DNA from: Rhizomicrobium sp.
GTDB lineage: Bacteria > Pseudomonadota > Alphaproteobacteria > Micropepsales > Micropepsaceae
Reading direction: 5' to 3'
DNA: 64,000 bases
Assembly: GCA_036267995.1 (NCBI GenBank)
Contig: DATAUZ010000033.1
Span: 37,431-101,430 of the forward strand
The notes beneath the pieces were generated by a model. It was not told the DNA's origin and made no database searches. It was given only the letters and a program-made list of their open reading frames with translations. The position numbers and the translations under genes were made by a program. This document shows positions 7,772 through 49,557 of this stretch, one piece after another (position 1 is the first letter of the stretch; every line of letters starts with the position of its first letter).

Positions 7772-7855
7772 GCCGGCTTCTCCAAAAAGTTTCCCGGTGC
7801 GTCGGTTATGTTATCCGCCAAGCGGCGCGCCTTCGGCGTATACCTTAAATTGGCT

Positions 7856-8940: not shown

Positions 8941-8994
8941 GCCCCGATGCGCGCGCGCTAAGTTCGCGCCCGAACAATATCAGGAGATAAGCCC

Positions 8995-9912
8995 ATGGGT
9001 GTTCTGGATGGCAAGGTCGTGCTGGTCACGGGCGGCGCGAACGGCATCGGCAAGGAATGTGCGCTGCTGGCGGCGCGCGAAGGCGCCAAGGTTGTGGTCA
9101 ACGATCTGGGCGGCGCGGTGTCCGGCGGTGACGAAGGCTCGGCCGGCCCCGCAGAACAGGTGGCGCATGAAATCCGCAAAGCTGGCGGCGAAGCGGTGTC
9201 CAATTCCGACAGCGTGACCAGCCGCGAAGGCGTCGCGCGCATGATCGAACAGGCAATGGACAGTTTCAAAGGCCTGCACGCCATCATCAATCCGGCCGGC
9301 ATCCTGCGCGACGGCATGTTTCACAAGATGAGCGAGCAGGATTGGGATCAGGTGATCGATGTCCACCTGCAAGGCACCTTCAACGTCTGCAAAGCAGCGA
9401 TCAATCATTTCCGCGAACAGCAGGAAGGTTCGTTCGTCCTGTTCACTTCCACGTCCGGCCTCATCGGCAATATCGGCCAGGCCAATTACGCCGCCGCCAA
9501 GATGGGCATTGTCGGCCTGTCGCGCATCATCGCGATGGAGGGGCTGTCCAAGAACGTGCGCGCCAACACCATCGCGCCGTTTGCCTGGACGCGCATGATC
9601 GCAACCATCCCGGTGAAAGACGAAGCCTCCGCCAAGCGCGTGGAGCGGATGAAGAACATGATGCGCCCCGATCAGGTGGCGCAGCTTGCGGTGTCGCTCG
9701 CTTCGCCGGCTTGCAAGGATGTGTCGGGGCAAATCTTCGTGGCGCGCGGCAACGAGATTTTCCTGATGAGCCAGCCCCGTCCCATTCGCGGCATGGGCAA
9801 GGTGGAAGGCTGGACGCCGGAAACCATCGCCAACCACTGCATGCCCGCGATGAAGCCTAGCTTCACTGAGCTTGGCGCCACCACAAGCGTGTTCGGCTGG
9901 GATCCGGTTTAA
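8995..9912 (+). CDS. SDR-family oxidoreductase (MFE-2 / 3-hydroxyacyl-CoA dehydrogenase-like)
   Basis: TGGANGIG cofactor motif; catalytic YAAAK. Confidence 0.85.
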   Translation: MGVLDGKVVLVTGGANGIGKECALLAAREGAKVVVNDLGGAVSGGDEGSAGPAEQVAHEIRKAGGEAVSNSDSVTSREGVARMIEQAMDSFKGLHAIINPAGILRDGMFHKMSEQDWDQVIDVHLQGTFNVCKAAINHFREQQEGSFVLFTSTSGLIGNIGQANYAAAKMGIVGLSRIIAMEGLSKNVRANTIAPFAWTRMIATIPVKDEASAKRVERMKNMMRPDQVAQLAVSLASPACKDVSGQIFVARGNEIFLMSQPRPIRGMGKVEGWTPETIANHCMPAMKPSFTELGATTSVFGWDPV

Positions 9913-9913
9913 C

Positions 9914-10393
9914 TCACCAATAATGGCTGCGCGGCGCGCCGGTCAGTTCGGCCAGGCGCCGTCGCGTGCCATCCGTGGTGCCCGGCGGCGGCGCACCCGG
10001 ATCGCAGAACAGCACTTCGCGGATTTCAAAATTCGGTTTGAAATCGATTGTGGCTTCAGACACGCGATAGAGAGCGATCACATTCGTCGTCCAGCCAAGC
10101 TTGCGGGTATAAAGTCCGAACAGCTCCGGCGCTGTGTCAGATCGAAGGCCGACCTCTTCTTGCAATTCCCGCATCACCGCTTGGGCTGGGGGCTCCCGGC
10201 GCGCGACGCCGCCGCCCGGTAGCGCCCAACCGTGGATATAGCTGTGCCGGACAAGGAGAACCTGCCCGCTCCCGTTTTCCACCATTGCACTGGCGCCAAA
10301 TGCGACCGGCGACGCGGCAGCCCGAAGGCCGGCCAGCCCGCCCAGCGCAATACGTTGGTAAAACGGCGGCCGGTCGCCCATCTCAAAGCCCAT
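9914..10393 (-). CDS. NUDIX hydrolase
   Basis: Nudix box GGGVARREPPAQAVMRELQEEVGL. Confidence 0.8.
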   Translation of the reverse strand: MGFEMGDRPPFYQRIALGGLAGLRAAASPVAFGASAMVENGSGQVLLVRHSYIHGWALPGGGVARREPPAQAVMRELQEEVGLRSDTAPELFGLYTRKLGWTTNVIALYRVSEATIDFKPNFEIREVLFCDPGAPPPGTTDGTRRRLAELTGAPRSHYW

Positions 10394-10509
10394 CCAAGCT
10401 GCGTCGTAAGGAAATTCTAACCATATCGTCTTAGCTTGACTTGGCCTTTACACCAACGGATCGGCCCGTCCCAACCGGTCCTGCGCGCAGCACCTGAGTC
10501 CGGCCAGCC

Positions 10510-11025
10510 ATGAGCGCTCCCACCTTCGACCATCTCAAGGCCCTCGTTGTCGAGGACAATCCACAATTGCGTTCGTTGTTGCGTTCGTTGCTGCACGCGT
10601 TGGGCATCAAAACTGTGTTCGAAGCCGCCGATGGCGAAAGCGGCTTTGCCGAGATGCGCGAAAAGAAGCCCGATTTCGTACTGACCGATCTTTCGATGGA
10701 GCCGATGAACGGGCTGGATTTCACCCGCATGGTGCGCACCGCCGAAGGCAGCCCCAACCCTTATGTGCCGATCGTGATGGTGACGGGCCATACCGAGCGC
10801 CACCGCGTGGAAGGCGCGCGCGATGCCGGCGTCACGGAATTTCTCGCCAAGCCGATCACGACACAAAATCTCTTCCTGCGCATCACGGAAATCGTGGACA
10901 GGCCACGCCCCTTTGTGCGCAGCGAAACCTATTTCGGGCCGGATCGCCGCCGCCGCAGGGCGCCGGACTTCACCGGCCCGTGGCGCCGCCGCGAAGACAA
11001 GGCCGGCGGAATCGAAATCCAGTAG
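10510..11025 (+). CDS. single-domain CheY-like response regulator with Arg-rich C-terminal extension
   Basis: Receiver residues E15/D16, D60, T92 and K114 are all present; about 40-aa tail PFVRSETYFGPDRRRRRAPDFTGPWRRRED. Confidence 0.85.
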   Translation: MSAPTFDHLKALVVEDNPQLRSLLRSLLHALGIKTVFEAADGESGFAEMREKKPDFVLTDLSMEPMNGLDFTRMVRTAEGSPNPYVPIVMVTGHTERHRVEGARDAGVTEFLAKPITTQNLFLRITEIVDRPRPFVRSETYFGPDRRRRRAPDFTGPWRRREDKAGGIEIQ

Positions 11026-11040
11026 AGGAAAAAGAAGGCG

Positions 11041-11526
11041 ATGACGCTCAAACCCAATCTCTTGGCAGACATGACGATCACTCCCGTCAGCGCCTATCCG
11101 CAGCCGGTATCCGGCATCGTCAAAACACAACTGCGCCATGCGCTCAGCAGCCGCGAAACGCTGAAAGCCGCCGAGAAGGTGATGCAGGAAAAAAGCGGCG
11201 ACATGCGCGAAGCCGTCTTGAGCTATGTCGCCAAACTGGAAGCCGCGAAAAATTCCGGCGACGCCGGTTTGCTGTTTGCGCAGGCGCATGAAATTCGCGG
11301 CCTTGCGGCCAACGCCGGTCTGGTGTCGGCCGGGCGCATCGCCGACGGGCTTTGCCGCTATCTGGATGAAGCCGGCCGCCGCGAAGCCACCGTGGACCGG
11401 GCCGTGACTTCGCTGTTCGTGGATGCGGTATCGCGCGCGAGCCACGCCACCGACGACGCCACCAAGCTTGGCGATACCGTGGCGCGCGAACTGAACGCGC
11501 TGGCCGCGCGCAAGCTCGCCGGCTAG
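11041..11526 (+). CDS. hypothetical protein, possible Hpt (histidine phosphotransfer)-like
   Basis: AHEIRGLAANAGL resembles the Hpt HxxKGxxxxxG motif; all-helical-looking; 15 nt downstream of the RR gene. Confidence 0.45.
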   Translation: MTLKPNLLADMTITPVSAYPQPVSGIVKTQLRHALSSRETLKAAEKVMQEKSGDMREAVLSYVAKLEAAKNSGDAGLLFAQAHEIRGLAANAGLVSAGRIADGLCRYLDEAGRREATVDRAVTSLFVDAVSRASHATDDATKLGDTVARELNALAARKLAG

Positions 11527-11701
11527 CAAGACAAAGTTAAGAATTGCAGCGCTCAACCGGGCTTAAATTGCCTGAAATTGCTGGTTTTGCTGGCTGTGAC
11601 GCACCCAACCTTCACGGCTCTTTAAGCCCTTCCCTTAATACTGATCGCGGCAGAAACGTCCGTTTTCCGCGGGCGTTGGCGCGGGGTTTCAGAGTTCATC
11701 C

Positions 11702-12574
11702 ATGCTCCAGATCGGCGGCATAGTCTTTTTGTTCGTGATGGTGTTCGGCGGCTTCCTGATTTCAGGCGGCTCCGTCGGCGTCATCGGCGAAGCCTTGCCG
11801 CATGAGATGATGACCATCGGCGGCGCCGCGATTGCGGCACTTCTCATCGGCGGCTCGATCTATTCGCTGAAGCAAATCGGCGGTGAACTGAAAAAAGTCG
11901 TCACCGGACCAAAATGGAAACCGTCCGATTATCGCGATCTTCTGGCGCTGTTGTTTCTGCTCACCAAGACGATGAAATCCAAAGGCCTGATCGCGCTGGA
12001 ACAGCATATCGAACGCCCCGAAGAATCCGGAATCTTCAAGCGTTTCCCCCGCATCTGCCACGATCACTTCGCCCTGCCTTTCATTTGCGACACGCTGCGC
12101 ATGATGACCATGAGCCTGGAAGATCCGCATCAGGTGGAATCGGCCATGGAAAAGCAGCTCGACAAGCATCACGCCGAAGCGCTCGGCCCTGCCAACGCGC
12201 TGCAAACGATGGCTGACGGATTGCCCGCGCTGGGCATCGTGGCGGCGGTTCTGGGCGTGATCAAAACCATGGGTGCTATTTCCGAACCGCCGGAAGTTCT
12301 GGGCCGCATGATCGGCTCGGCGCTGGTCGGCACATTCATGGGCGTGTTTCTGGCGTACGGAATCGTCGGCCCCATCGCCACGCGCCTGAAAATGATCGTG
12401 GACGATGAGGCGCAGTTCTATCACGTCATCCGCGACGTGCTGGTAGCGCATCTGCATGGCAATGCGGCGCAGGTTTCTGTGGAAATCGGGCGCGGCAGCG
12501 TGCCGACCGAAGCGCAACCGAGCTTTCAGGAACTGGAAGCAGCGCTCGACAATATCCCGCCGGAAAAAGCCTAG
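11702..12574 (+). CDS. motA: flagellar motor stator protein MotA
   Basis: Four-TM MotA/TolQ/ExbB architecture; N-terminus MLQIGGIVFLFVMVFGGFLISGG; conserved C-terminal PALGIVAAVLGVI...VGTFMGVFLAYG block. Confidence 0.9.
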   Translation: MLQIGGIVFLFVMVFGGFLISGGSVGVIGEALPHEMMTIGGAAIAALLIGGSIYSLKQIGGELKKVVTGPKWKPSDYRDLLALLFLLTKTMKSKGLIALEQHIERPEESGIFKRFPRICHDHFALPFICDTLRMMTMSLEDPHQVESAMEKQLDKHHAEALGPANALQTMADGLPALGIVAAVLGVIKTMGAISEPPEVLGRMIGSALVGTFMGVFLAYGIVGPIATRLKMIVDDEAQFYHVIRDVLVAHLHGNAAQVSVEIGRGSVPTEAQPSFQELEAALDNIPPEKA

Positions 12575-23754: not shown

Positions 23755-25893
23755 TCAGGTGCCGACTTGTAGCAGCGTGTCGTAAAGGCTCTGGACCACC
23801 GTCAGCATCCGCGCGCCGGCGGAATAGGCCTGCTGGTAGACCATCATGTTGGAAAGCTCTTCATCCAGATTGACGCCGGAGCTGGACGCCAGCTGCGATT
23901 GCGCTTCCGTCAGCCGGTCGTCCTGCGTGGTCTGGTTGGTTTGCGACGAGGCGGTGCGCGTGGAAACATCCTGGTAGTACATGCCGGCATAATCGCCCAG
24001 CGTTCCCGACTGCCCGTTCAGCCCGCCGGCGGCGGCGAAGTTCTGCGCGCTGCTCAGCATGGTTTCGAATGCCGCGATGCCGCGGCCATCGCCTGGCGTA
24101 ACGACGGAATCGCCGGCAACCGTTGTGGCGGTGATGGAAGGCTGCGCGAATGGCAGGTTGCTCACCGTCTTCATCGCCGAGGCCACGCTGAAGTTGGAAG
24201 CCTGCGCCGACTGTTGCTGTGTGCCGATGCCGAAGAGCTTGGTAAAGCTCATGCCGGTTGAGCCACGCTGTGTGGAATCTTCCGTAACATCGAGCGCGTA
24301 ACCGGCATTGGCGGCAGACGGCGTCATTGAAATCGAGCCGTCGGATTTGAGCTGGAACGTGCCGGCGCTGCCCATGGCGCCGTTCAGCGCGTTCACAACG
24401 TCGCCGATCGACATGCCGGCCGTCATCGTGACGCTGGCCTGCTTGGCGATCTGCCCATCCGGGCCGCGCAACACGAAGTCGATCTCGGAACCCGCGGCGA
24501 TGCCGCTATCGTCGCCAGCCGAAAGTCCGGTTGTCAGAACCGATGGCGCCGCGGACTGGAAAACATCGTTCAGCCCGAAGAATTGCGAGAAGCCGACGCC
24601 GCCGCGGCTGGAGGGCGTAGTGGCATCGTCCTGCACGACAACGCCGTTACCGGACGATCCGGAAATGGAAAGTTCGCCATTCGTGAAGCTGGCCGAACCA
24701 TTGCTGCCCAGCGCGCTGTTCAGCGCCGTGGCGAAATCGCCCATCGTGGCGCCGAGCGGCTGTGCCGCGCCGCCATCGACGGACAGCGTCCCGGCATCGA
24801 AATTCACATCCACGCGGCTGACGAGGTTGCCGCTGGAATCGGTGATGCCGATGGTCGTCTTCCCAGTGAAGTTCAGCGCGTCGGTAGAAAGCAGGCCGGT
24901 GTTGCGGCCATCGAGTTCTGTGGGCGGCGGATAGGCCGAATTGGCGTTCGACACTTTGTTGAATGCCAGCGCCGTTTTCTGCGCGAACTGGCCGAGTTCT
25001 GTCTGCAACTGGCCCAGCGTCTGATCGCGCATGTCGATCAGACCCTTGAGGCTACCCGAACCCAGATGCGAATCCAGCGTCTGCGCCTGCCCGATCACCT
25101 GTCCGGTGGCGGGGTTGATGTTGGTGTAGGTGATGGCGCCGAACGAACCGTTGGTGCTGCCGCCATCGTACGAAAGCTTGGCGTAGGTATCGCCCACCAG
25201 CGTGATGCCGTCCTGCGTCATCACGGTCATCGCGCCGTTGGACTGTGTGCCAGTGCGCACGCCCACATATTGCGAAAGGCTCTGGACCGCCAGATCGCGC
25301 TGATCGAGCAGGCCGCTGGAGGTGTTTCCGGTGGCTTCCTGCGTCTGGATCTGCTGGTTCAGATCGTAAATCTGCTTGACGAGATCGTTCACCGTGCCGA
25401 TGGACGACGACACCTGCTGATCGGTCTGCACTTGGAGATTGGCGACCGAACCGGACAGCGTCGAAACGGTCGAGGCCAGGCTCTGCATCGAGTTCAGCAC
25501 GCCCTGGCGGCTGGCATTGGACGAAGCGTCCAGCGACGCCGTGCTCAGCGACGACAGAACATTGTCGAGCTGCGAGGTCAGCGATGTGCCATCGCCCGGC
25601 TGGCCGAGCAAGGCGTTGAGCTGATTGTAAACGGTTCCTTCCGCATCGTATTGCGCGGAGGATGCGGAGGCCGACAGCGTCTCCGACTGATAATACTGAT
25701 CGACGACGCGCTGGATGCTGGAGATATCGACACCGGAAAGCTCGCCGCCGATGGTCTGGGTCTGCTGGTTCACCACACGGCGGGCATAGCCGGGCGTGTT
25801 GATATTGGCCACGTTCTGCGAAACCACGCGAAGCGCGGAGCTGTTGGTCTGAAGCGCGGTCAGCGCGCTCGACAGAATTCCATTCAGGCTCAC
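23755..25893 (-). CDS. flgK: flagellar hook-associated protein 1 FlgK
   Basis: N-terminus SLNGILSSALTALQTNSSALRVVSQNVANINTPGYARR; C-terminus EELSNMMVYQQAYSAGARMLTVVQSLYDTLL. GTG 25893 has GAGGAA 8 nt upstream. ATG 25929 lies between the -12 element and the predicted TSS, so I rejected it. Confidence 0.9.
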   Translation of the reverse strand: MSLNGILSSALTALQTNSSALRVVSQNVANINTPGYARRVVNQQTQTIGGELSGVDISSIQRVVDQYYQSETLSASASSAQYDAEGTVYNQLNALLGQPGDGTSLTSQLDNVLSSLSTASLDASSNASRQGVLNSMQSLASTVSTLSGSVANLQVQTDQQVSSSIGTVNDLVKQIYDLNQQIQTQEATGNTSSGLLDQRDLAVQSLSQYVGVRTGTQSNGAMTVMTQDGITLVGDTYAKLSYDGGSTNGSFGAITYTNINPATGQVIGQAQTLDSHLGSGSLKGLIDMRDQTLGQLQTELGQFAQKTALAFNKVSNANSAYPPPTELDGRNTGLLSTDALNFTGKTTIGITDSSGNLVSRVDVNFDAGTLSVDGGAAQPLGATMGDFATALNSALGSNGSASFTNGELSISGSSGNGVVVQDDATTPSSRGGVGFSQFFGLNDVFQSAAPSVLTTGLSAGDDSGIAAGSEIDFVLRGPDGQIAKQASVTMTAGMSIGDVVNALNGAMGSAGTFQLKSDGSISMTPSAANAGYALDVTEDSTQRGSTGMSFTKLFGIGTQQQSAQASNFSVASAMKTVSNLPFAQPSITATTVAGDSVVTPGDGRGIAAFETMLSSAQNFAAAGGLNGQSGTLGDYAGMYYQDVSTRTASSQTNQTTQDDRLTEAQSQLASSSGVNLDEELSNMMVYQQAYSAGARMLTVVQSLYDTLLQVGT

Positions 25894-25933
25894 GGGGCCA
25901 TTCCTCGAAAGCTTTGTCGCCGCAAGCATGGTC

Positions 25934-25948
25934 GCAAGCCTCGTGCCA
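25934..25948 (-). promoter_or_regulatory. sigma-54 (-24/-12) promoter for flgK-flgL
   Basis: Minus strand reads TGGCAC-GAGGC-TTGC, a perfect match to TGGCAC-N5-TTGC. Predicted TSS is near 25922, 29 nt upstream of GTG 25893. Confidence 0.75.
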
Positions 25949-26010
25949 GCCGCGCGTCTTATATATGGCGGAATTCCGCGCTTTCCTTTCGTGCGCAGCG
26001 CACGCGATGG

Positions 26011-26025
26011 CGGCAGTCTTTGCCG
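26011..26025. promoter_or_regulatory. inverted repeat CGGCA-N5-TGCCG, candidate FlbD (ftr-like) enhancer site
   Basis: Perfect 5+5 palindrome located between the two divergent sigma-54 promoters, about 65-100 bp from each. Confidence 0.4.
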
Positions 26026-26029
26026 GTCA

Positions 26030-26044
26030 TGGCAGTTCGTGCCC
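26030..26044. promoter_or_regulatory. second GGCA-N5-TGCC palindrome, candidate FlbD site
   Basis: TGGCA-GTTCG-TGCCC, 19 bp centre-to-centre from the first site. Confidence 0.35.
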
Positions 26045-26110
26045 ATGCGAAACGCGCGGCGTTAAGCGCGCCTTCACGCAGAAAATCGCGGAAGTCCGCC
26101 GCGCAGATGT

Positions 26111-37560: not shown

Positions 37561-38607
37561 ATGCAACTGCGCACCTTCACAGCCCGCGACATGAAGGCCG
37601 CGCTTGCTCTTGTGCGCGCGGAGATGGGCGCCGAGGCGGTAATCGTGGCCAGCGAACGCGGCAGGAACGGCGTCATGGTGCGCGCAGCCGCTGACCAGCC
37701 GGATATCGAACCTGAACCGCCAAAGCCTATCGCGGCGCTTGAGCCCGCGGCGTTGCTGTCTTTTGAATCGCGCTGCCGCGAAGGCCTGATGCGCCGCGTG
37801 CGCGCGGAGCAACCCGCTGCAGCCGCCGAACCGCTTGGCTTCAACCGCGCCGAACTATTGACCATTCTGGGCCGTCATCGCCTCGCCGACGCGCTTTCAT
37901 ACGCGCTGGCCGAGGCTGCTGAAAAGACCGCGCTCACCGACATGACATTGGCGCTGGCGTCGGCGCTCGACAAGCGCATGGAAATCGCGCCGCTCGATCT
38001 GAACAAGACAACCGGTATTCTGCTGGCCGGCATGCCCGGTGCGGGCAAAAGCGCCGTCGCCGCAAAGATCGCCGCGCACGCCAAACTCTGCGGTCGCGAC
38101 GTGCGGCTGATCGCGGCCGATGCCACCGGTGCTGGCGCTATCGCGCGGCTGGAAAGTTTCGCGGGCCATATCGGCGCAAAATTCGCCGTCGCCGAAACCG
38201 CCGACGCGTGGCTGGAAGAATTCTCGAAAGCCGAACAGGAAAAAACCCTGGCGGTGATCGATACCGCCGGCATCGATCCGCGCAACGCCAAGGTGCGCAC
38301 CGCCTTCTCCGCGCTGGGCAAACTTTCCGGCGTTACCAAGCTGGGTGTCGTCTCTGCCATGGGCGATGCGGAAGAAACCGCCGATATCGCCGATGGTCTG
38401 CGCAAGCTTGGCGCGCACGGTCTGATTGTTTCCGGCGTCGATCTGGCACAGCGGCTTGGCGCGCTCGCGTCGGCCGCAACGCAAAACGTACCGTTGGCGC
38501 ACGTCACCCGTTCGCCGTTCGTGGCCGCCGGGCTCGAGACCATGACGCCGCTTTCGCTGGCGCGCGCGCTGATCGCGGCCGATGCCGACCGCAGGAGCGC
38601 ACAATGA
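37561..38607 (+). CDS. flhF: flagellar biosynthesis SRP-type GTPase FlhF (short form)
   Basis: N-terminal B-domain motif FTARDMKAALALVRAEMGAEAVIV; G1 GMPGAGKS; G3 DTAG; position after flhA. Confidence 0.75.
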   Translation: MQLRTFTARDMKAALALVRAEMGAEAVIVASERGRNGVMVRAAADQPDIEPEPPKPIAALEPAALLSFESRCREGLMRRVRAEQPAAAAEPLGFNRAELLTILGRHRLADALSYALAEAAEKTALTDMTLALASALDKRMEIAPLDLNKTTGILLAGMPGAGKSAVAAKIAAHAKLCGRDVRLIAADATGAGAIARLESFAGHIGAKFAVAETADAWLEEFSKAEQEKTLAVIDTAGIDPRNAKVRTAFSALGKLSGVTKLGVVSAMGDAEETADIADGLRKLGAHGLIVSGVDLAQRLGALASAATQNVPLAHVTRSPFVAAGLETMTPLSLARALIAADADRRSAQ

Positions 38608-39389
38608 AAACACCACGTCTCACGGCCATCGCATCGGGCAAGGGGGGCACCGGCAAAACCTTTCTCGCGATCAATCTGGCCCATGCGTTGGCGCGAGAGG
38701 GGGAACGAGTTCTGCTCTGCGATGCCGACCTGGGTCTTTCCAACACCGGCGTGCATCTGGGCCTTTCCGAAGCAGGCGATCTGCCGGCGCTCCTTTCCGG
38801 CAAAAGGGCGCTTTCGCATTGCGTCACGCGCATCACGACGGGTCGCAGAGGTTTGTTCGATCTTCTCGCCGCGCCAGCAGGGTCCGGCTCGCTCGCCGAT
38901 GCGGACGAACCCACCTTGCGCTTTCTCGCATCCGAGCTTCGCTTCGCATCCGGTTACGACCGCGTGCTGCTCGATCTCGGTGCTGGCGTGGACACTATCG
39001 TGCAAAGCTTGGCGCTCGCGGCGGATGAGCTTGTGCTGCTGCTGACCCCCGATCCCGCGTCGCTGACCGATGCTTATGCGCTGGCCAAACTGGTCGCGCG
39101 CCGCGGCGCGCGCACGCCGTCGCTTGTCGTGAACATGACATCCAGCGATAGCGAGGGCCGCCGCACCGCCGATGCGCTTATCGCCGCCGCCCGCAATTTC
39201 CTGAAAATCTCGCCCGAATATCTCGGCTGCATTCCGCGCGACCCGCAGGTCTGCGAAGCCGTCCGCCACCAGGCCGCGCTGATCGCCGCGCAATCCTGCG
39301 CCCCCGCCGCGCGCGCTATTTCTCTGCTTGGCGAAAAACTGCATTCCCGGCTGCAACCGATTGCCAAGCTGGCGGCAAGTATTCGTTAA
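38604..39389 (+). CDS. flhG: MinD/ParA-family ATPase FlhG-like
   Basis: Deviant Walker A SGKGGTGKT; DADLGLSN; ATGA overlap with flhF. Confidence 0.75.
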   Translation: MKTPRLTAIASGKGGTGKTFLAINLAHALAREGERVLLCDADLGLSNTGVHLGLSEAGDLPALLSGKRALSHCVTRITTGRRGLFDLLAAPAGSGSLADADEPTLRFLASELRFASGYDRVLLDLGAGVDTIVQSLALAADELVLLLTPDPASLTDAYALAKLVARRGARTPSLVVNMTSSDSEGRRTADALIAAARNFLKISPEYLGCIPRDPQVCEAVRHQAALIAAQSCAPAARAISLLGEKLHSRLQPIAKLAASIR

Positions 39390-39393
39390 CCAT
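39386..39393 (+). promoter_or_regulatory. CtrA 8-mer motif TTAACCAT overlapping the flhG stop codon
   Basis: Exact TTAACCAT, 176 nt upstream of the small-TM/lemA/DUF2207 operon. Confidence 0.35.
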
Positions 39394-39568
39394 ACGGTTA
39401 CCCCAGTCCCGCGGAAATCGCACGCTTCCGCGCGCTCAGGGAGCCTCGTGCCGCGCCGTAACTTGGTATATAAAGTGTTAACAGGGACCGGCGCCGGCCC
39501 CGCGCTTACGCCGAGTGCGGGATTAGAATGACGGTCCTCGTAACGCGTGTGCGCTTCAGGGGGATGTG

Positions 39569-39907
39569 ATGGATTGGCTCACGGACATCTGGAATTCGAT
39601 CTACGCCATTTTCGCGACGGCCGACTGGATCACACTCCTGATCATCGGGGTCGTTGTGCTCGGCGTCGGCTTCATGACGGAAAGCCTCGCCACCATCATC
39701 ACGTCCACATTCATCGCGCTGGTGGTTTATGCGGTGGCGCAATTTGTGCGGGCCATCGCCACGGGCGGCGCCAATGCCTCCGCGCTGGCGCAGGCCGACT
39801 GGCACACGTTCCTCGCTTGGCCGATGCAAGGCTTCATCGCCTATGCCATCGCCTTTGCGGTTCTGATCGCCATTGTCAGCCTCCTGCGCACGCTGGTTCT
39901 GCGCTAA
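39569..39907 (+). CDS. small 3-TM membrane protein, unknown function
   Basis: GGGGGA RBS before ATG 39569; hydrophobic segments throughout. Confidence 0.55.
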   Translation: MDWLTDIWNSIYAIFATADWITLLIIGVVVLGVGFMTESLATIITSTFIALVVYAVAQFVRAIATGGANASALAQADWHTFLAWPMQGFIAYAIAFAVLIAIVSLLRTLVLR

Positions 39908-40015
39908 GTCCAAAAGCGCAAACGGAAATCGCGCACGCGCGGCGGGTCGCCGGGAGCCCAGCCAATGTCGCTGCGGGCGTAGACTGGCGGTTGCAGACCG
40001 GTTAGTTTCACGCCC

Positions 40016-40572
40016 ATGAGCGCACTCTGGATCGTCGTCGGCATCGTAGTCCTTATCGGACTGTGGGCCATGTTCACCTTCAACGGGCTTGTCCGCCGCA
40101 AAAACGTGACAGCAGAAGCCTGGAGCGGCATCGACGCGCAGCTTAAACGCCGCGCCGATCTCATCCCCAACCTCGTGGAGTCCGTGAAGGGCTACGCCAC
40201 GCACGAACAAACCACGTTCGACGACTTGGCGAAGCTGCGTAGCCAAAGCGCGGCCCAGACCGATCCCACGCAGCGCGCGCAGACCGAAACCGCCATCACC
40301 GCCGCCATCGGCAAGATCATGGCGGTAGCGGAAGCCTATCCGCAGCTGCGCGCCACCGAGAATTTCCAGATGCTGCAGAAGGATCTGGCGGATATCGAAG
40401 ACCAGATTCAGCTGGCGCGGCGCTACTACAACGGCGCGGTGCGCGATTTCAACACGATGATCCAGAGCTTTCCGTCGAACTTCATCGCCGGCATGGGCGG
40501 CTTCGCCGCGGCGCCGTTCTTCCAGATCGACAACGAAGCGGATCGCGCCGTTCCGAAGGTTTCGTTTTCCTG

Positions 40573-40573
<1 letters not shown>
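40016..40573 (+). CDS. lemA: LemA-family protein
   Basis: N-terminal TM plus conserved AYPQLRATENFQMLQKDLADIEDQIQLARRYYNGAVRDFN block. Confidence 0.9.
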
Positions 40574-42507
<1,934 letters not shown>

Positions 42508-42522
42508 CGCCGCGCATCGCGC

Positions 42523-43707
42523 ATGACAATTCAAACGCTTCTCTCCGACAGGCCGACACTCGCCGTTCTGACCGGCCTCGCCGTTATCATCCTCTATTTC
42601 GCGTTCGCGTGGTGGCGCGTTGGGCGCAACCCGAATTCCGGCCCCGTCATCGCGCTGTTCGCGCCGCCGCCCGGCATGTCGGCCGCAGGCATGCGCTATG
42701 TGGAACAGAACGGCTGCGACGACACCGCCTTCACCGCAACGTTGGTCGCGCTGGCGGTCAAAGGTATCCTCACCATCAGGGAAGACGATTACGGCGATCT
42801 CAAAATCTACACCGTCACGCGCACCGCCGCCGATTATACCGCCGCCGGCCTTACCGCCGATGAAGATGCGACCGCGCGCGCGCTGTTCGCCAAGAAAAAC
42901 GAGATCGAGCTTTCCGCGCAAGACTATCGTTTCGTGCACGGCGCGCAGGCCACACTGAAAAACGCGCTCACCGCGCAATATGGCAAAGGCTTTCTGATAA
43001 AGAACTGGGCCTGGTTCCGGCCGCTTCTGGCGATTGCCGCGCTCAGCTTGATCGCGATGATTGCACTCTCGCACGATCCGCTTACTGCTGTACCCACATT
43101 TGTGTGGTCCTGCATGACGCTTGGCACCGCAGTATTGCTGGGCGGGATCGACCTCTTTCTCTGGAAGAATATCGCGTCTTCCGGTCAGAGACTGTTTTCG
43201 CTATTCGGCGGCCTTGTCATGCTTGCGCCGACCGTTTGCATGGTCAGCGTCACCTATATTGTCCTCTATCAGGGCTTCGATGATGTGCCGCGCAACGCCA
43301 TCATGTTGTTCTTCGTGCTGATGGCGCTGGTGGCAGTCTTTCACCATCTGCTGCTGACCTTCACGCCAACCGGCGCCAAAACGATGGCGCAGATCGACGG
43401 CTTCAAACTCTTCCTCAACGCCACCGAAGCGGACCGCCTGAAAACCCTGAACGCGCCCACCATAACGCGCGCGATGTATGAGCGTTTCCTGCCTTTCGCG
43501 ATGGCGCTGGATTGCGAAACGCCCTGGACTGCGAACTTTCAGGCGCAAGCAGCAAGCGTGCAGCCCTTGAATGTGGGTGGCTATCAGCCGGATTGGATGG
43601 CGGGCAAAGCCTTTAGCGATCTTGGCCCCGCCCTGTTCAAATCGTCGCTCGGCACATCGCTCGCCAACGCACAAACCATCAGCACACATTCCAATTCGGA
43701 CGATTAG
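42523..43707 (+). CDS. DUF2207-family paralogue 2, membrane/C-terminal module only
   Basis: Starts at the segment equivalent to TM1 of paralogue 1 (AFAWWRVGRNPNSGPVIALFAPPPGMSAAGMRYV vs MIAWVRFGRDPQHGTIIPLFSPPKDFSPSAVRYV). Retains DRLKTLNAPTITRAMYERFLPFAMALDCETPW. Has no ectodomain and no poly-Gly tail. Confidence 0.75.
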   Translation: MTIQTLLSDRPTLAVLTGLAVIILYFAFAWWRVGRNPNSGPVIALFAPPPGMSAAGMRYVEQNGCDDTAFTATLVALAVKGILTIREDDYGDLKIYTVTRTAADYTAAGLTADEDATARALFAKKNEIELSAQDYRFVHGAQATLKNALTAQYGKGFLIKNWAWFRPLLAIAALSLIAMIALSHDPLTAVPTFVWSCMTLGTAVLLGGIDLFLWKNIASSGQRLFSLFGGLVMLAPTVCMVSVTYIVLYQGFDDVPRNAIMLFFVLMALVAVFHHLLLTFTPTGAKTMAQIDGFKLFLNATEADRLKTLNAPTITRAMYERFLPFAMALDCETPWTANFQAQAASVQPLNVGGYQPDWMAGKAFSDLGPALFKSSLGTSLANAQTISTHSNSDD

Positions 43708-43720
43708 CGGGGGAAAGCCC

Positions 43721-45661
43721 ATGCGCATGTTTCGGATACTGGCGGCGGCAATATGTTTGGCTTTTACAGCGCTTGCGTCGGCGCACGCGGCGCCGGCCGA
43801 CGATGTCGAACACATCACCGATTACCGCAGCGATATCACCGTACAGCGCGATGGCGTGCTGGCGGTGCGCGAGACCATCACGGTCAATGCGCTGGGCGAT
43901 GAAATCTCCCACGGCATCTTTCGCGACTTCCCCACGCTTGGGCAGAACGGCGTGCACGCGAGTTTCAACGTCAGCGCCGTCACGCGCGACGGAAAGCCCG
44001 AGCCGTTTGAAATCGACCGCCTCGATGGCGGCAAGCGGGTGAAGATCGGCGACGCCGATACCGAACTGTCCCACGGCACGCACACCTATACGATCGCCTA
44101 CACGACAGACCGGCAGATCCATTTCTTCCCCACCTACGATGAGTTCTATTGGAACGTCACCGGCAACGGTTGGGATTTCCATATCGAGCGAGCGGAGGCG
44201 ACCGTTCACTTGCCACCGGGCGCGCGCATTCTGCAATCGGCCTTCTATACCGGCACATTGGGCGAGACACTGAAGGAAGCGGCGTCCGAACAGCTAACCC
44301 CCAACACCATCCGCTTCGTCACCACCGACCGGCTTTCCTATCATTCCGGCCTCACCATTGCGCTCGGCTTCACAAAAGGCGCGGTGCCGCCGCCAACGCA
44401 AAGTCAGCTCACCGCCTATTTTTTGCGCGATCATCTTTCCATCTTCGTGATGCTCGCGGGCGTTATCTTGATGGCGCTTTATTATCTGATCGCGTGGCTT
44501 CGGGTCGGCATCGATCCCAGCGACGGCACCGTGGTGCCGCTGTTCGAGGCGCCCAACGGCATGTCGGCGGCGGAAGTGCGGTTCCTGCGCAAGCATCTCA
44601 ACTACGACAACAAGATGTTTGCTGCCGCTCTGGTTTCGCTGGCCGTGAAAGGCGCGCTGAAAATCACACAGGAAAAAGACGAAACCTACACGCTGACCCG
44701 TACCAGTGAAGGCGAGGATCTTTCGCCGGATGAAAGCGCCGTCGAAAGAACCATCTTCGTCGAAAGCCACACCGTCACGCTGACGCAGGCCGATCATTTC
44801 AGCATCTCGCTGGCCGTCGGCGCCCAAACGAAAAAGTTGTCGGATGCTTATGGCGACGGATACGAGATCGGCAATTGGTCGTGGTTCTGGCCGGGGCTCG
44901 TCATCCTGCTGCTGGCAGCGATTGCCATGATCTTCTGTTCGGCTTCGCCGGGCGACATGGCGCTGACGATATTGTGGACAAGCCTTTGCGGCGGCGCCAC
45001 AGCAGGCTTCGCCTATATGGATTTTTCCATGTGGCGTAATGCTTACACCACGCGCAGCGGACGCATCGGAAATCTTTTCGCCGCGTTCTTCATGCTGTTC
45101 CCTGCCTTCCTCTTCGGCGCGATGACATCGGGCGCTCTGCTTGAGACCTACGATACCGCTTCACCCATCGCCGTCGGCGTGTTGCTGGCGGGCGTGGCGC
45201 TCGCAGCCCTGTTCCACCGCCTGTTGCGCAAGCCCACGCCACGTGCCGCAAAGCTGCTCGCGGCCATCGAAGGCTTGCGCCTGTTCCTCACCACCGCCGA
45301 ACAGGATCGGCTGGAAAAACTTAACCCGCCGCAGATCACGCCCGAAGTGTTTGAAAAATTCCTGCCCTATGCCATCGCGCTGGATTGCGAGAACCAGTGG
45401 AGCAAGCGCTTCGAGGCAGAGGCCGCGCGCGCGGGTGCGTCCGTGGATGTGCAAAACTATCGACCAATCTGGTTCCACGGCGACTTCGGCCAGCTTGGCA
45501 CCGCGGCCCTTGCCGCCTCCATCGGATCGACGTTGACCACGGCGGCAACCGCCGCATCCTTCACCGCATCCTCCGGCGGATCGGGCGGCTTCAGCTCCGG
45601 CTCGTTCGGCGGCGGATTTTCCGGCGGCGGCGGCGGTGGCGGTGGTGGCGGCGGCTGGTAG
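43721..45661 (+). CDS. DUF2207-family membrane protein, paralogue 3
   Basis: Signal peptide MRMFRILAAAICLAFTALASAHA; same conserved blocks as paralogue 1; Gly11-Trp C-terminus. The track ORF's upstream extension (43571) overlaps paralogue 2 and is rejected. Confidence 0.85.
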   Translation: MRMFRILAAAICLAFTALASAHAAPADDVEHITDYRSDITVQRDGVLAVRETITVNALGDEISHGIFRDFPTLGQNGVHASFNVSAVTRDGKPEPFEIDRLDGGKRVKIGDADTELSHGTHTYTIAYTTDRQIHFFPTYDEFYWNVTGNGWDFHIERAEATVHLPPGARILQSAFYTGTLGETLKEAASEQLTPNTIRFVTTDRLSYHSGLTIALGFTKGAVPPPTQSQLTAYFLRDHLSIFVMLAGVILMALYYLIAWLRVGIDPSDGTVVPLFEAPNGMSAAEVRFLRKHLNYDNKMFAAALVSLAVKGALKITQEKDETYTLTRTSEGEDLSPDESAVERTIFVESHTVTLTQADHFSISLAVGAQTKKLSDAYGDGYEIGNWSWFWPGLVILLLAAIAMIFCSASPGDMALTILWTSLCGGATAGFAYMDFSMWRNAYTTRSGRIGNLFAAFFMLFPAFLFGAMTSGALLETYDTASPIAVGVLLAGVALAALFHRLLRKPTPRAAKLLAAIEGLRLFLTTAEQDRLEKLNPPQITPEVFEKFLPYAIALDCENQWSKRFEAEAARAGASVDVQNYRPIWFHGDFGQLGTAALAASIGSTLTTAATAASFTASSGGSGGFSSGSFGGGFSGGGGGGGGGGGW

Positions 45662-46075
45662 TCAGCCCTTCTTGCCGGTGTTGTCGAGCGCGAAGCGCCC
45701 GGGTCCCATGCCGACCAGCAAAAGCAGCCCGCCGGCAATCGCAATGTTGCGCGCATACAGCGCATAGAACAGCCCACGCCGCGCCGGATCGGAGACGTTC
45801 CAGTAATTGTCAGCGAGCACCGTCATAATGATCGTGAAGGCAAACAGCAGCATGGCGCCCTGCCGCGTGTGAAAGCCCAAAATCAGCGCCAGCCCGCCCA
45901 GAAGAACGATGAAAAGGATCAATGCCAGCAGCAGTACGGCGGCCGGATAACCGGCTTTCGTCAGAGCGGCGACATTGCCATGCCAGTCCTGCACGCAAAA
46001 CCACGCCTCGCTGAGGAAAAACCAGGCCAGCACCCAGCGGCCAACCAACGGCGAAATCTGTTCGGAAATAGACAA
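45662..46075 (-). CDS. DoxX-family membrane protein
   Basis: Four hydrophobic helices with a DoxX-like pattern (LLLALILFIVLLGGLALILGFHTRQGAMLL); its stop abuts the stop of paralogue 3. Confidence 0.75.
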   Translation of the reverse strand: MSISEQISPLVGRWVLAWFFLSEAWFCVQDWHGNVAALTKAGYPAAVLLLALILFIVLLGGLALILGFHTRQGAMLLFAFTIIMTVLADNYWNVSDPARRGLFYALYARNIAIAGGLLLLVGMGPGRFALDNTGKKG

Positions 46076-46128: not shown

Positions 46129-46557
46129 TCAGGCCTGCCGCAGCGCGTGTTTGCGCAGGTGGCGCACGATGGCCATTTCGTCCAGACGCGATTGGGCGCG
46201 GCGGGCTTCGGTTTCGGCCACGCGCTTGGCTTCATGCTCGGTCGCCAGTTCCAGGCTTTTCAGGTCCTGATAGGCGGTGGTGAGATCGAGTTGCACGCTT
46301 TCGCGCTCGCGTTCGATTTCCTTCAGCGTGGCGCGAAGATTTTCGCGGCGCACATCGATGGAACGCAGGAACGACGGAAAGGCCAAACGGCCGATATCGG
46401 AATCGTTGGCGCGCTGGCGTTCGCGCGCCACGCTCTCTTCAAGGTCGGAAAGCTTGCGCTCGCAATCGGCTTTCATGCCGTCGAGCGTTCCCATGCGCCG
46501 CTTCAGGTCGTCCACCCGAAAGCGCTTCAAGCGCAAAAGCGTGTCGCGCCGTTTCAT
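46129..46557 (-). CDS. fliJ: flagellar export chaperone FliJ-like
   Basis: 142-aa charged coiled-coil protein immediately downstream of fliI, overlapping it by 4 nt. Confidence 0.7.
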   Translation of the reverse strand: MKRRDTLLRLKRFRVDDLKRRMGTLDGMKADCERKLSDLEESVARERQRANDSDIGRLAFPSFLRSIDVRRENLRATLKEIERERESVQLDLTTAYQDLKSLELATEHEAKRVAETEARRAQSRLDEMAIVRHLRKHALRQA

Positions 46558-47891
46558 ACCGGCCTACCCTTCCCCTTGCCGCCCAGAATTTCGTCCAGTG
46601 CGGTATAGCCATCGCCCAAATTCGCCCGTTCGTTCTTCTTCTGCGCGAGGAACGCTTCGAGCTGCGGATGCAATTTCACGGCGGCATCGACCTCTGCGCT
46701 CGTGCCGGCCTTGTAAGCGCCAAGGCGGATAAGCTCCGCCATATCTTCATAGACCGCAAGCGGCGCGCGCGCGCCGGCCACCACAGCCTGTTCGCTTTCG
46801 CTGTTGCACGAAGGCATGACGCGCGAAACCGATTTGAGAATGTTGATGGCGGGAAAGCGCCCACGCTCGGCGATGGCGCGGTCCAGCACGATATGGCCGT
46901 CCAGAATGCCGCGCACCGCATCGGCCACCGGCTCGTTCATGTCGTCGCCTTCCACCAGCACGGTGAAGAGCCCGGTGATCGAACCGTAAGCGCCTTGTTG
47001 TCCCGGCCCGGCACGCTCCAGAAGGCGCGGCAGTTCCGCGAACACGGTGGGCGTATAGCCTTTGCTGGCCGGCGGCTCTCCGGCGGAGAGGCCGATCTCG
47101 CGCTGTGCCATTGCGAAACGGGTCACGCTGTCCATAAGCAGCAGCACATGCAAGCCTTGGTCCCGAAGTTGTTCGGCCACGGTCATGGCCACATAAGCCG
47201 CCTGGCGGCGCACAAGTGCCGGCTCGTCCGACGTGGCGGCAACCACCACGCTGCGCTTCAGGCCTTCTTCGCCCAGATCGTCTTCAATGAATTCTTTCAG
47301 CTCGCGTCCGCGTTCGCCCACCAGCCCGATCACGATGGCATCGGCATCGGTGTAGCGCGCCAGCATGGCGAGCAATGTCGATTTGCCGACGCCGGAGCCT
47401 GAGAAGATGCCCATGCGCTGGCCTTTGCAGCAGGTCACGAACTGGTTCAGCGCGCGCACGCCCAGATCCAGCTTGCCGGAAACCCGCGCGCGGGTGTGTG
47501 CGGACGGTGGCGAAGCCTTGATGGGATAGCCAATCTGGCCTTGCGGCAGCGCGCCTTTGCCATCCGTGGGCCGGCCGAAAGCATCGACCACGCGGCCAAG
47601 CCAAGCCTCGCAGGGAAAGATCACCCCCGCCCGGTCATCGAAGTCGGCGCGGGCCCCAAGGCTCACGCCGGACAGTTCGCCCAGCGGCATTCCCAGCGCC
47701 CGGCCGTCGCGAAAGCCGACCACCTCACACGGAATTTGCTTGCCGCCAGAACCAGTTATGCTTAACTGGCCGCCCAGGCTGATCGCCCCTGCAGCGCCCG
47801 TCACTTCGACGAGCAGGCCTTCGATGCGCGCCACGCGCCCGAAGCGCCGCAGAGCCGGAACAGCCTCAATATCTTTGATCAGAGCGTGCAT
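46554..47891 (-). CDS. fliI: flagellum-specific ATPase FliI
   Basis: Walker A GSGVGKST; Walker B HVLLLMDSVTRFA; F1/T3SS-ATPase architecture. Confidence 0.95.
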   Translation of the reverse strand: MHALIKDIEAVPALRRFGRVARIEGLLVEVTGAAGAISLGGQLSITGSGGKQIPCEVVGFRDGRALGMPLGELSGVSLGARADFDDRAGVIFPCEAWLGRVVDAFGRPTDGKGALPQGQIGYPIKASPPSAHTRARVSGKLDLGVRALNQFVTCCKGQRMGIFSGSGVGKSTLLAMLARYTDADAIVIGLVGERGRELKEFIEDDLGEEGLKRSVVVAATSDEPALVRRQAAYVAMTVAEQLRDQGLHVLLLMDSVTRFAMAQREIGLSAGEPPASKGYTPTVFAELPRLLERAGPGQQGAYGSITGLFTVLVEGDDMNEPVADAVRGILDGHIVLDRAIAERGRFPAINILKSVSRVMPSCNSESEQAVVAGARAPLAVYEDMAELIRLGAYKAGTSAEVDAAVKLHPQLEAFLAQKKNERANLGDGYTALDEILGGKGKGRPV

Positions 47892-48062: not shown

Positions 48063-48070
48063 TTAACCAT
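48063..48070 (+). promoter_or_regulatory. CtrA 8-mer motif TTAACCAT upstream of ctrA
   Basis: Exact TTAACCAT 66 nt upstream of the ctrA ATG; further TTAA half-sites at 48083 and 48096. Confidence 0.45.
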
Positions 48071-48135: not shown

Positions 48136-48828
48136 ATGCGCGTTCTGCTGATCGAAGACGACAGCGCTATGGCGCGCAGCATCGAGTTGATGCTGCGGTC
48201 TGAGGGTTTCAACGTTTACACCACCGATCTCGGCGAAGAAGGGATCGATCTGGGCAAGCTCTACGATTACGACATCATCGTTCTGGATCTTCAGCTTCCG
48301 GACATGAGCGGCTTTGAAGTTCTTAAGACGCTGCGTCTCGCCAAGGTACAGACGCCGGTCTTAATTCTTTCGGGCAACGCGATCGTCGAAGCAAAGGTTA
48401 AGGCGCTGGGTTTCGGCGCCGACGATTACATGACCAAGCCCTTCCACAAAGATGAACTGGTCGCGCGCATTTCCGCCGTCGTGCGCCGTTCCAAGGGCCA
48501 TTCGCAGTCGGTCATCACCACCGGCAAGCTCACCGTCAACCTCGACGCCAAAACCGTCGAAGTCGATGGCAGCCGCGTGCATTTGACCGGCAAGGAATAT
48601 CAGATGTTGGAGCTGCTTAGCTTGCGCAAGGGCACCACGCTGACGAAAGAAATGTTCCTGAACCACCTTTACGGCGGCATGGACGAACCGGAACTGAAAA
48701 TTATCGACGTCTTCATCTGCAAGCTGCGCAAGAAACTGGCGGCGGCAACAGCCGGCGACAACTACATCGAAACGGTGTGGGGCCGCGGTTATGTGCTGCG
48801 CGATCCGGTGGAAGAAGCCGCCGCATAA
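48136..48828 (+). CDS. ctrA: cell-cycle master response regulator CtrA
   Basis: OmpR-family protein; near-identical to my memory of CtrA over MRVLLIEDD...[14 protein letters not shown]...[12 protein letters not shown]...[15 protein letters not shown]. Confidence 0.95.
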
Positions 48829-48902: not shown

Positions 48903-49289
48903 TCAGGCTTTCTCCATCGTCTTATTGAGCGCCCGCTGTGTGCCCTTGGGATCGCCGGCAATCACCGCAAGATAGGCGCGCGCCGGTTGATCGGGCTCGC
49001 TTCGCCCCTGTTCCCAGTCGCGCAGCGTTCCGAGCGGTATCCGGTAACGGGACGAAAACTCTTCCTGCGTGAGATTCAAGCTGCGCCGCAATGTCTTGAC
49101 GCGCGCAACCTTTCGCATTTTCGATACGTCATGCGGCGGATTGCCGGGATCGCTTTGCGCTGCTTTCTCGATTTCATCGTCGGATATGGGCCGCGGCGGC
49201 CGCGCTTTGAGCCTTTCCTCGCGTCCATCCTTGTGAACCCGCACGAGCTTGCCGTCAGTTTTGCGAATTTTCGCGGTAATAAGCGTCAT
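48903..49289 (-). CDS. antitoxin-like protein (DUF4415-like N-part plus XRE-type HTH)
   Basis: DDEIEKAAQSDPGNPP segment and C-terminal HTH LNLTQEEFSSRYRIPLGTLRDWEQGRSEP; directly downstream of the BrnT gene and overlapping it. Confidence 0.7.
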   Translation of the reverse strand: MTLITAKIRKTDGKLVRVHKDGREERLKARPPRPISDDEIEKAAQSDPGNPPHDVSKMRKVARVKTLRRSLNLTQEEFSSRYRIPLGTLRDWEQGRSEPDQPARAYLAVIAGDPKGTQRALNKTMEKA

Positions 49290-49557
49290 GCTCTTTCCTT
49301 GTTGCCCGCCGGGCTGAGATCAACCGGATATTCTCGCCGCGCTCAGTATAAACAACCGCCAGCACCAGCAATTCAGCCTGCCCGATAATAACGAAACGGT
49401 CCTCGCCGCTATCGGGATCGAAGATTTCCATCGCGAGAGGATCATGAAACACCGCGACCGCCATTTCGAAAGCAATGCCGTGCTTTCGATAGTTGGCCTG
49501 AGCTTTCTCATCATCCCATTCGAAGGTCAGCATATACGGGTAACCCGTAGTTGGCAA
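49255..49557 (-). CDS. brnT: BrnT-family (DUF497) toxin
   Basis: FEWDDEKAQANYRKHGIAFEMAVAVFHDP...IRLISARRATRKE signature. Confidence 0.8.
   Translation of the reverse strand: MPTTGYPYMLTFEWDDEKAQANYRKHGIAFEMAVAVFHDPLAMEIFDPDSGEDRFVIIGQAELLVLAVVYTERGENIRLISARRATRKEHDAYYRENSQN

Follow-up and report, generated by a model that had tools for sequence, protein, structure and literature searches.

A probable autonomous lemA-DUF2207 operon with three DUF2207 paralogues at the junction of two flagellar operons in Rhizomicrobium sp.

Background

Why would a lemA gene and three tandem DUF2207 genes lie in the middle of a flagellar gene cluster? The question is raised by a 64,000-nucleotide stretch of DNA from Rhizomicrobium sp. 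(NCBI GenBank assembly GCA_036267995.1, contig DATAUZ010000033.1, positions 37,431 to 101,430 of the forward strand), which we call the window; coordinates are positions within it unless another locus is named. LemA and DUF2207 proteins are among the commoner bacterial membrane-protein families of unexplained mechanism. LemA-DUF2207 pairs are common and occur in non-flagellated Bacteroidota (PMC12631010), and a member of the DUF2207 family is found in non-flagellated streptococci (PMC10457818). An earlier, sequence-only reading of the window had suggested that the block is co-regulated with the flagellar and cell-cycle programme through a CtrA-type motif upstream of it. Our analysis leads us to consider it probable that the block is instead an autonomous lemA-DUF2207 envelope operon, vertically inherited and with a lineage-specific expansion of paralogues, and that it is not flagellar.

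Gene content of the block

The block consists of lemA (40016-40573, plus strand) and three DUF2207 genes on the same strand, referred to here as D1 (40573-42507, 644 amino acids, aa), D2 (42523-43707, 394 aa) and D3 (43721-45661, 646 aa). LemA matched PF04011 over profile positions 1-149 of 149, at 196.5 bits against a cutoff of 26.2 (E 2.6e-58). The two DUF2207 profiles, PF09972 for the N-domain and PF20990 for the C-domain, matched D1 at 113.3 and 117 bits and D3 at 107.9 and 102.5 bits; D2 matched PF20990 only. Profile searches above threshold for lemA, D1 and D3, together with the PF20990 match of D2, therefore confirmed the family assignments made from the sequence. The genes are closely packed, with a TGATG overlap between lemA and D1, spacers of 15 nucleotides (nt) between D1 and D2 and 13 nt between D2 and D3, and a D3 stop codon (TAG) that directly abuts the stop codon of the convergent doxX gene (TCA on the plus strand), leaving 0 nt between them. 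All of these junctions, and the gene coordinates, were as the sequence-only reading had given them.

The setting inside a flagellar supercluster was likewise borne out by the flanking genes on both sides. Upstream are flgL, flgK, flgD, flgE, fliF, fliG, fliH, fliN, flbD, flhA, flhF and flhG (38604-39389, plus strand), and a Pfam scan of the upstream open reading frames (ORFs) confirmed flgL, flgK, flgD, flgE, fliF and fliH. Downstream are fliJ (46129-46557, minus strand), fliI (46554-47891, minus strand) and ctrA, the gene of a CtrA-like response regulator (48136-48828), which is divergent from fliI-fliJ and lies about 2 kb from the block; flhG, fliJ and fliI were placed from the ORF list and a Pfam scan. 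Two further genes adjoin the block on the inside of these flanks, one for a 113-aa protein with three hydrophobic segments (39566-39907, plus strand) and doxX (45662-46075, minus strand). The best FliI match among species-representative genomes was 80% identical, and the nearest named relatives were Rhizomicrobium sp. metagenome-assembled genomes (MAGs).

Distribution and inheritance

To place the block, the window proteins were mapped onto 80 fliI-centred loci and onto loci retrieved through DUF2207 homologues, which carry labels of the form L002. The layout in which ctrA is divergent from fliI-fliJ, and fliI-fliJ is convergent with flbD-flhA-flhF-flhG, is widespread in Alphaproteobacteria, and the gap between fliJ and flhG varies there from ~0.5 kb to ~9 kb, with variable content. 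The lemA-DUF2207 block occupied this gap only where FliI was at least 80% identical to that of the window, in 7/7 loci with fliI in view (L002, L082-L086 and L096, the last a partial contig seen on the fliJ side only). It was absent from L003-L005, where FliI is 75-78% identical, and from L006-L081, about 70 further alphaproteobacteria with the same flagellar layout. A position between flhG and fliJ thus holds for this genome and its close relatives and is not general in Alphaproteobacteria.

The number of DUF2207 genes differs among the loci that carry the block. There is one copy in each of L002 (which has no 113-aa gene), L085 and L086, two in each of L083 and L084, at least two in the portion of L096 covered, three full-length copies in L082, and three in the window with the middle one truncated. 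The DUF2207 proteins of these relatives have diverged to ~55-60% identity. Two genes in this set are broken or fused by apparent frameshifts, namely lemA in L002 (12278-14770 of that locus) and the second DUF2207 gene in L084 (10001-12068), where the contig name, contig_31987_np1212, suggests a nanopore assembly; both are probably assembly indel errors rather than true pseudogenes.

In the window, L002, L082-L087 and L088-L092, lemA lies directly upstream of a DUF2207 gene on the same strand. Several of these loci bear on independence from the flagellum. The pair occurs at non-flagellar loci of a MAG from the Acetobacteraceae and of a genome of Aestuariivirga (L088, L089), and on three metagenome contigs (L090-L092) without a match to the window's flagellar proteins nearby. 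A metagenome scan with the family alignment, in which the poly-Gly pattern dominated, confirmed at least six loci among the matches listed. At L087 (ENA ERZ25039537, contig_39381; 7059-12162) the gene order is mnmA-DUF1153-lemA-DUF2207-doxX-fliJ-ctrA. In the window the whole flagellar block follows mnmA, whereas the L087 locus lacks flgL through flhG, the 113-aa gene and fliI, and a lone fliJ is left. The envelope block has thus outlived its neighbouring flagellar genes there, which suggests that the flagellar cluster was lost or relocated. L085, where flhF and flhG are retained, presents an intermediate state. The non-flagellar and unmatched loci, the retention at L087 and the presence of the families in non-flagellated taxa together argue that the block is independent of the flagellum. 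Two marks of membership in the flagellar gene set were also considered; co-occurrence across lineages was not found, nor, at the level of sequence patterns, was a sigma-54 or CtrA-box promoter.

The genes on either side of the block are older residents of the site. The 113-aa protein, which had no Pfam or NCBIfam match and which carries the three transmembrane (TM) segments described by the sequence-only reading, has orthologues in L082-L086 and also in L003, L012 and L013. In the latter three loci its gene adjoins doxX, with no lemA or DUF2207 gene between them, and therefore predates the insertion. DoxX matched PF07681 at 43.8 bits (cutoff 23.6) and SURF4 (PF02077) at 46.8 bits (cutoff 27). 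The doxX gene sits next to fliJ without lemA or DUF2207 in L003, L005, L012, L013 and L044, and its convergent junction with the block is tight in relatives, the two stops being 0-3 nt apart in L002, L085 and L086. The simplest history is a single insertion, because doxX directly neighbours the 113-aa gene in L003, L012 and L013 and the block occurs only at FliI identities of 80% or more. lemA-DUF2207 would have entered between these two genes in the ancestor of one Micropepsales/Rhizomicrobium-like soil subclade, at what is the convergent junction of two flagellar operons (flhA-flhF-flhG against fliI-fliJ), and would have been inherited vertically since.

Three further observations concern the 113-aa gene itself. 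Its Shine-Dalgarno sequence, AGGGGG, is strong and conserved. The L012 and L013 versions of the protein have Gly/His-rich C-terminal tails. Homologues sit beside flhG or flhA in several alphaproteobacterial lineages and have conserved upstream elements of their own, and the gene may be an unrecognised member of the flagellar cluster.

Promoter region of lemA

A promoter-like element precedes lemA on the plus strand at 39980-40009. It is made up of a -35 TAGAC (39980-39984), a 17-nt spacer and a -10 TTAGTTTC (40002-40009) that ends 6 nt before the lemA ATG. In 7/8 loci the corresponding pattern, [TG][ATG]GAC-N17-YTAGNNTY, stops 5-6 nt short of the lemA ATG, and L084 has a one-base variant; the eight loci include L002 and L087, neither of which has the 113-aa gene. 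Over both strands of the 64-kb window the pattern occurred twice. It resembles what we take to be the housekeeping consensus of Caulobacter sigma-73 (TTGACGS / GCTANAWC). In pattern-level tests, the lemA upstream region contained no TTAA element, and the sigma-54 consensus gave only chance-level matches with two mismatches, inside coding sequence, over 39390-40015.

The conserved element implies that lemA has its own sigma-70-type promoter. As the -10 ends only 5-6 nt before the ATG, the mRNA is predicted to be leaderless, which would explain the missing Shine-Dalgarno sequence of lemA. We propose that the operon would be transcribed from this promoter as a leaderless lemA-D1-D2-D3 message, independently of the flagellar promoters.

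History of the DUF2207 paralogues

D1 and D3 both have a hydrophobic N-terminus plus 4-5 TM segments, and both end in G11-W. In an alignment of 77 DUF2207 homologues the C-terminal Trp was invariant and the Gly run at least 90% conserved; this poly-Gly-Trp tail (D1 residues 619-644 and the D3 C-terminus), which D2 lacks, stands out as a strongly selected feature. D1 and D3 share 49% identity, and D2 shares 36% with each of them. For D1, identity is 60% with the single DUF2207 copy of L002 and 99% with P0021, a protein of a 'Rhizomicrobium sp.' MAG.

In a neighbour-joining tree built from the shared C-domain, two types separated. The A-type clade contains D1, the first-position copies of L002 and L082-L084, and the single copies of L085-L087 (P0025, P0033 and P0038), while D3 falls in the B-type clade with the copies that lie downstream in L082 and L083. 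D2 came out as the deepest, long-branched member of the B-type clade (bootstrap 71). The sequence blocks shared by D1 and D3, to which the sequence-only reading had drawn attention, are present, but most are family-wide motifs in the 77-homologue consensus and do not point to a recent duplication. We rejected a recent duplication of D1 and D3, or gene conversion between them. Their nucleotide sequences match exactly over no more than 20 consecutive bases, and where the residues are identical the third codon positions agree at an average of ~0.55, judged near saturation for the GC content at third codon positions (GC3). These values and the A/B clade structure show that the three paralogues are old, and gene conversion was not seen. 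A tandem duplication long ago would have produced an A-type gene next to lemA (D1) and a B-type gene (D3). D2 would be a further, fast-evolving B-derived copy that lost the signal peptide, the periplasmic domain and the poly-Gly-Trp tail and kept the membrane and cytoplasmic core.

The truncated copy D2

In the three-way alignment, D2 aligns with its paralogues from the first TM segment on, and it lacks the signal peptide, the N-domain and the Gly tail, in agreement with the topology that had been read from the sequence. PF20990 matched at 92.7 bits (E 3.8e-26) over the whole C-domain and PF09972 did not match, so D2 belongs to the DUF2207 C-domain family only. The possibility of a hidden N-domain in another frame or upstream was rejected, given that the D2 start follows the D1 stop after only 15 nt. 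D2 has no Shine-Dalgarno sequence before its ATG; one (GGGGGAAAG) precedes the D3 ATG at 43721.

This copy is the focus of an alternative that we hold to be somewhat unlikely, namely that D2 is a duplicate in decay, on the way to becoming a pseudogene, so that the pattern of full, truncated and full copies would be meaningless and only lemA-D1, and perhaps D3, would matter. D2 does have the longest branch of the tree. It has lost the ectodomain, the nearly invariant tail and two prolines that are invariant in 76 full-length homologues, and its ATG has no Shine-Dalgarno sequence. No D2 orthologue was found at any of the related loci, where L082 has three full-length copies instead, nor in 5.8 billion clustered proteins or 1.8 billion representatives, in which matches other than its own sequence reached at most 39% identity. 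Against decay, the ORF is uninterrupted over 394 codons, its GC3 of 0.74 equals that of the neighbouring genes, the Pfam match spans the entire C-domain, and 15/17 of the core residues invariant in the full-length homologues are retained. Its AlphaFold2 model was confident, with a predicted local distance difference test score (pLDDT) of 88.4 and a predicted template modelling score (pTM) of 0.85. The deletion is also clean, in that D2 starts exactly at TM1 and keeps the N-out topology signal. Short forms numbered ~13 among the top 150 representatives and some are clearly fragments, but several DUF2207 proteins with only the C-domain seem genuine (P0159, P0208/P0004 and P0280), so the architecture recurs. 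The native GC3, the confident model and the retained core residues argue that D2 is functional.

CtrA-like motif and regulation

The sequence-only reading had noted an exact CtrA-type motif overlapping the flhG stop, and the CtrA half-site-like TTAACCAT is indeed present at 39386-39393 on the plus strand, where it overlaps the flhG TAA. In the whole window the motif was observed twice against an expectation of 0.35, a count reached in 4/100 shuffles. From this copy at the flhG stop it is 173 nt downstream to the 113-aa gene and ~630 nt to lemA. At the flhG stop, GCGTTAACC(A), which contains the element TTAACC(A), is conserved in L082-L086. Keeping TTAACC(A) there demands a rare CGT arginine codon and a TAA stop in a genome of 62% GC, and such an unfavourable codon choice can be argued to reflect selection on the DNA sequence itself. 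Alignment of six intergenic regions between flhG and the 113-aa gene revealed a second conserved island at 39465-39483 (plus strand), reading GGTATATAAAGTGTTAACA here and GTGTATCAT..TAACA in relatives; it is a candidate -10 of the 113-aa gene, about 75-80 nt downstream of the motif at the flhG stop. The same layout was found in L003, with CGTTAAGCAT followed by GTGTATAGT..TAACAA, although that locus has no lemA-DUF2207. Both the motif and the second block consequently belong to the older 113-aa gene. With lemA also having a promoter-like element of its own, the proposed flagellar and cell-cycle co-regulation through this motif is left with little support.

Two side observations concern the motif. 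At 39386-39400 the motif is, in this genome only, extended into an inverted repeat, TAACC-ATAC-GGTTA, that is not conserved in relatives. A second exact TTAACCAT lies at 48063-48070 (plus strand) in the fliI-ctrA spacer, 66 nt upstream of ctrA, and the same 8-mer is present in that spacer in L003, L004 and L005; by analogy, this copy would fit autoregulation of CtrA as in Caulobacter. The ctrA product of the window is 82-99% identical to that of the same-position gene in most related loci.

It might nevertheless be argued that the block is an envelope module linked to the flagellum or the cell cycle, co-transcribed or co-regulated through the CtrA-type site and acting at the flagellated pole, for instance on the membrane around the basal body. 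We judge this unlikely. The block does lie inside the flagellar supercluster and has been kept there in at least seven related loci, ctrA is 2 kb away, the motif has its only other copy in the window within the promoter region of ctrA, and the element at the flhG stop is conserved despite its codons. A LemA relative, MamQ, also acts in membrane invagination and is needed for magnetosome membrane formation and biogenesis (PMC4902198). However, the insert is missing from the next relatives and from the ~70 alphaproteobacteria of the same layout, the pair is found away from flagellar genes, and at L087 it stayed after those genes had gone. The motif belongs upstream of the 113-aa gene, lemA has a conserved promoter without a TTAA element, and the full CtrA box, TTAA-N7-TTAA, occurs 0 times in the whole window. 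The family is, in addition, common in bacteria that have no flagella. Literature searches for LemA with CtrA, and for Rhizomicrobium flagellar genetics, returned nothing relevant.

Predicted structures and likely mechanism

LemA has a single TM segment (residues 4-22) followed by RRK, which places its helical domain on the cytoplasmic side by the positive-inside rule. Residues 25-184 matched PDB 2ETD at E 2.8e-35, and the plan of an N-terminal anchor and a helical bundle is shared with that protein, the Thermotoga maritima LemA. The LemA-family magnetosome protein MamQ has the same plan but is not paired with DUF2207, whereas the LemA of the window is, and magnetosome genes are absent here. 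Identity with MamQ was rejected, as the score against the MamQ equivalog (NCBIfam NF040966) was 95.7 bits (E 2.7e-27), far under the cutoff of 250. A LemA-like domain has been predicted to be a membrane-face scaffold (bioRxiv 10.64898/2026.07.15.738315). In a literature search for LemA with ESCRT-III/PspA, LemA was absent from the matches listed.

The AlphaFold2 model of D1 (pLDDT 82.9, pTM 0.72) begins with a signal peptide and a beta-sandwich (residues 28-219), followed by TM1, an alpha/beta insert (residues 284-355) that can be read as winged-helix-like, and a long helix with four further TM helices. The C-terminal part comprises a helical C-domain with the most conserved motif, a disordered Ser/Gly linker and a short terminal strand; this strand is formed by the last three residues, modelled with a confidence above that of the linker. 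Five TM helices after the signal peptide would leave the C-terminal half of DUF2207 and the tail facing the cytoplasm.

Foldseek gave matches of the D1 N-domain with ribophorin I and with the N-terminal domain of M1 aminopeptidases at E ~1e-6 to 1e-5 with a probability of 1.0. As in D1, the ribophorin I (OST1) beta-sandwich lies outside the cytoplasm and is followed by a TM helix. These alignments cover ~220/644 residues at 10-13% identity with a whole-model TM-score of ~0.2, and D1 has no catalytic domain. Sequence searches at E up to 10 linked neither the N-domain to ribophorin or peptidase M1 nor the other segments to any family. The likeness of the models is therefore one of fold and is not evidence of shared function. 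No solved structure matched DUF2207 by sequence search, and the best PDB fold neighbour of the C-domain, searched with the D2 model in Foldseek, had E 0.36.

Some functional context comes from a DUF2207 mutant of Streptococcus mutans, SMU.243, which is sensitive to acid and to oxidative stress and is impaired in biofilm formation (PMC10457818). The protein belongs to the same family as those of the window and points to envelope or stress physiology, but the organism is Gram-positive, the sequence is distant, no lemA neighbour is mentioned, and the result is a phenotype and not a mechanism. With this mutant and MamQ (PMC4902198) on record, the earlier statement that the LemA/DUF2207 pair has no established function is roughly right, if not absolute.

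An inner-membrane complex appears to be the most likely mechanism because of the S. mutans phenotype, the MamQ and ML0451c precedents and the models. LemA would contribute one TM helix as an anchor and a four-helix bundle at the cytoplasmic face. DUF2207 would contribute a periplasmic beta-sandwich resembling that of ribophorin I, then five TM helices, a winged-helix-like insert on the cytoplasmic side and the conserved helical C-domain. Together they would probably couple a domain for binding or sensing in the periplasm to a membrane scaffold in the cytoplasm, with a possible role in envelope homeostasis or stress tolerance. D2 may then be a subunit without the sensing domain that mixes into, or modulates, these assemblies.

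Relation to known systems and remaining alternatives

The general lemA-DUF2207 pair, known by the COG names LemA and 'YgcG-like membrane protein', has the same gene order and the same overlapping or tight stop-start junction as the window, and its DUF2207 protein has the same signal peptide, N-domain, TM core and poly-Gly-Trp tail. The window differs in having three DUF2207 genes and not one, including a copy without ectodomain and tail, in the site between flagellar operons, and in a leaderless-type promoter that is conserved only within this clade.

A more elaborate proposal is that LemA and the three DUF2207 proteins form a mixed inner-membrane assembly in which D2 modulates stoichiometry or acts as a cap, and that in this clade the assembly has been drawn into the flagellar and cell-cycle programme by CtrA-controlled read-through from the 113-aa gene. 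We consider it very unlikely; if true, the mixed assembly and its CtrA recruitment would for the first time place an uncharacterised and very widespread envelope system in a functional context.

It is hardly credible that the block is a recently acquired island, mobile or gained by horizontal transfer, whose place among the flagellar genes is due to chance: the GC content of D2-D3 is slightly under that of the flanks (0.59-0.60 against 0.62-0.65) and the content of the fliJ-flhG gap varies widely among alphaproteobacteria, but no integrase, transposase or tRNA gene was found among the block ORFs (repeats were not searched for), GC3 is native, and the shared site, the divergence of the DUF2207 proteins and the clustering of first-position copies in the tree indicate an old, vertically inherited insertion.

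The autonomous envelope operon that we favour has several points against it. The case for the lemA promoter and the leaderless start is built on conservation. Read-through from the 113-aa gene, and hence a CtrA input to lemA, is possible, with TTAACC(A) being conserved at the flhG stop. L087 is a single locus, and its flagellar genes could lie elsewhere in the genome. The block is fixed at its exact site across a diverged clade, which fits simple synteny and would also fit selection for position. The anatomy of LemA-DUF2207 is taken from models, to which a physical interaction and a function are added by deduction, and with a C-domain that has no solved neighbour the mechanism is conjecture.

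For an autonomous operon, the position inside a flagellar cluster can reflect mere insertion at a tolerant operon junction. The clade offers a natural series of one-, two- and three-copy arrays together with a core-only copy, which could guide experiments on interaction and mixed assembly. Otherwise the locus is an unremarkable example, from an uncultured organism, of a known operon, and does not alone make the function testable.

Other features of the window

Downstream of ctrA, at 48903-49557 on the minus strand, are two small overlapping ORFs of 100 aa and 128 aa. Genes at the same position in L082 are annotated as a BrnT toxin and an HTH_3 antitoxin, and L085 and L086 lack them. The two ORFs are likely a BrnT/BrnA toxin-antitoxin pair between ctrA and an ATP-binding cassette transporter.

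On the flagellar side, an exact sigma-54 consensus, TGGCACGAGGCTTGC, lies at 25934-25948 on the minus strand, inside the 5' end of the flgK ORF (23755-26046, minus strand), and sites with one mismatch were found at 26558 and 27688. From the position of the exact site, flgK may start downstream of its first start codon, behind a sigma-54 promoter.

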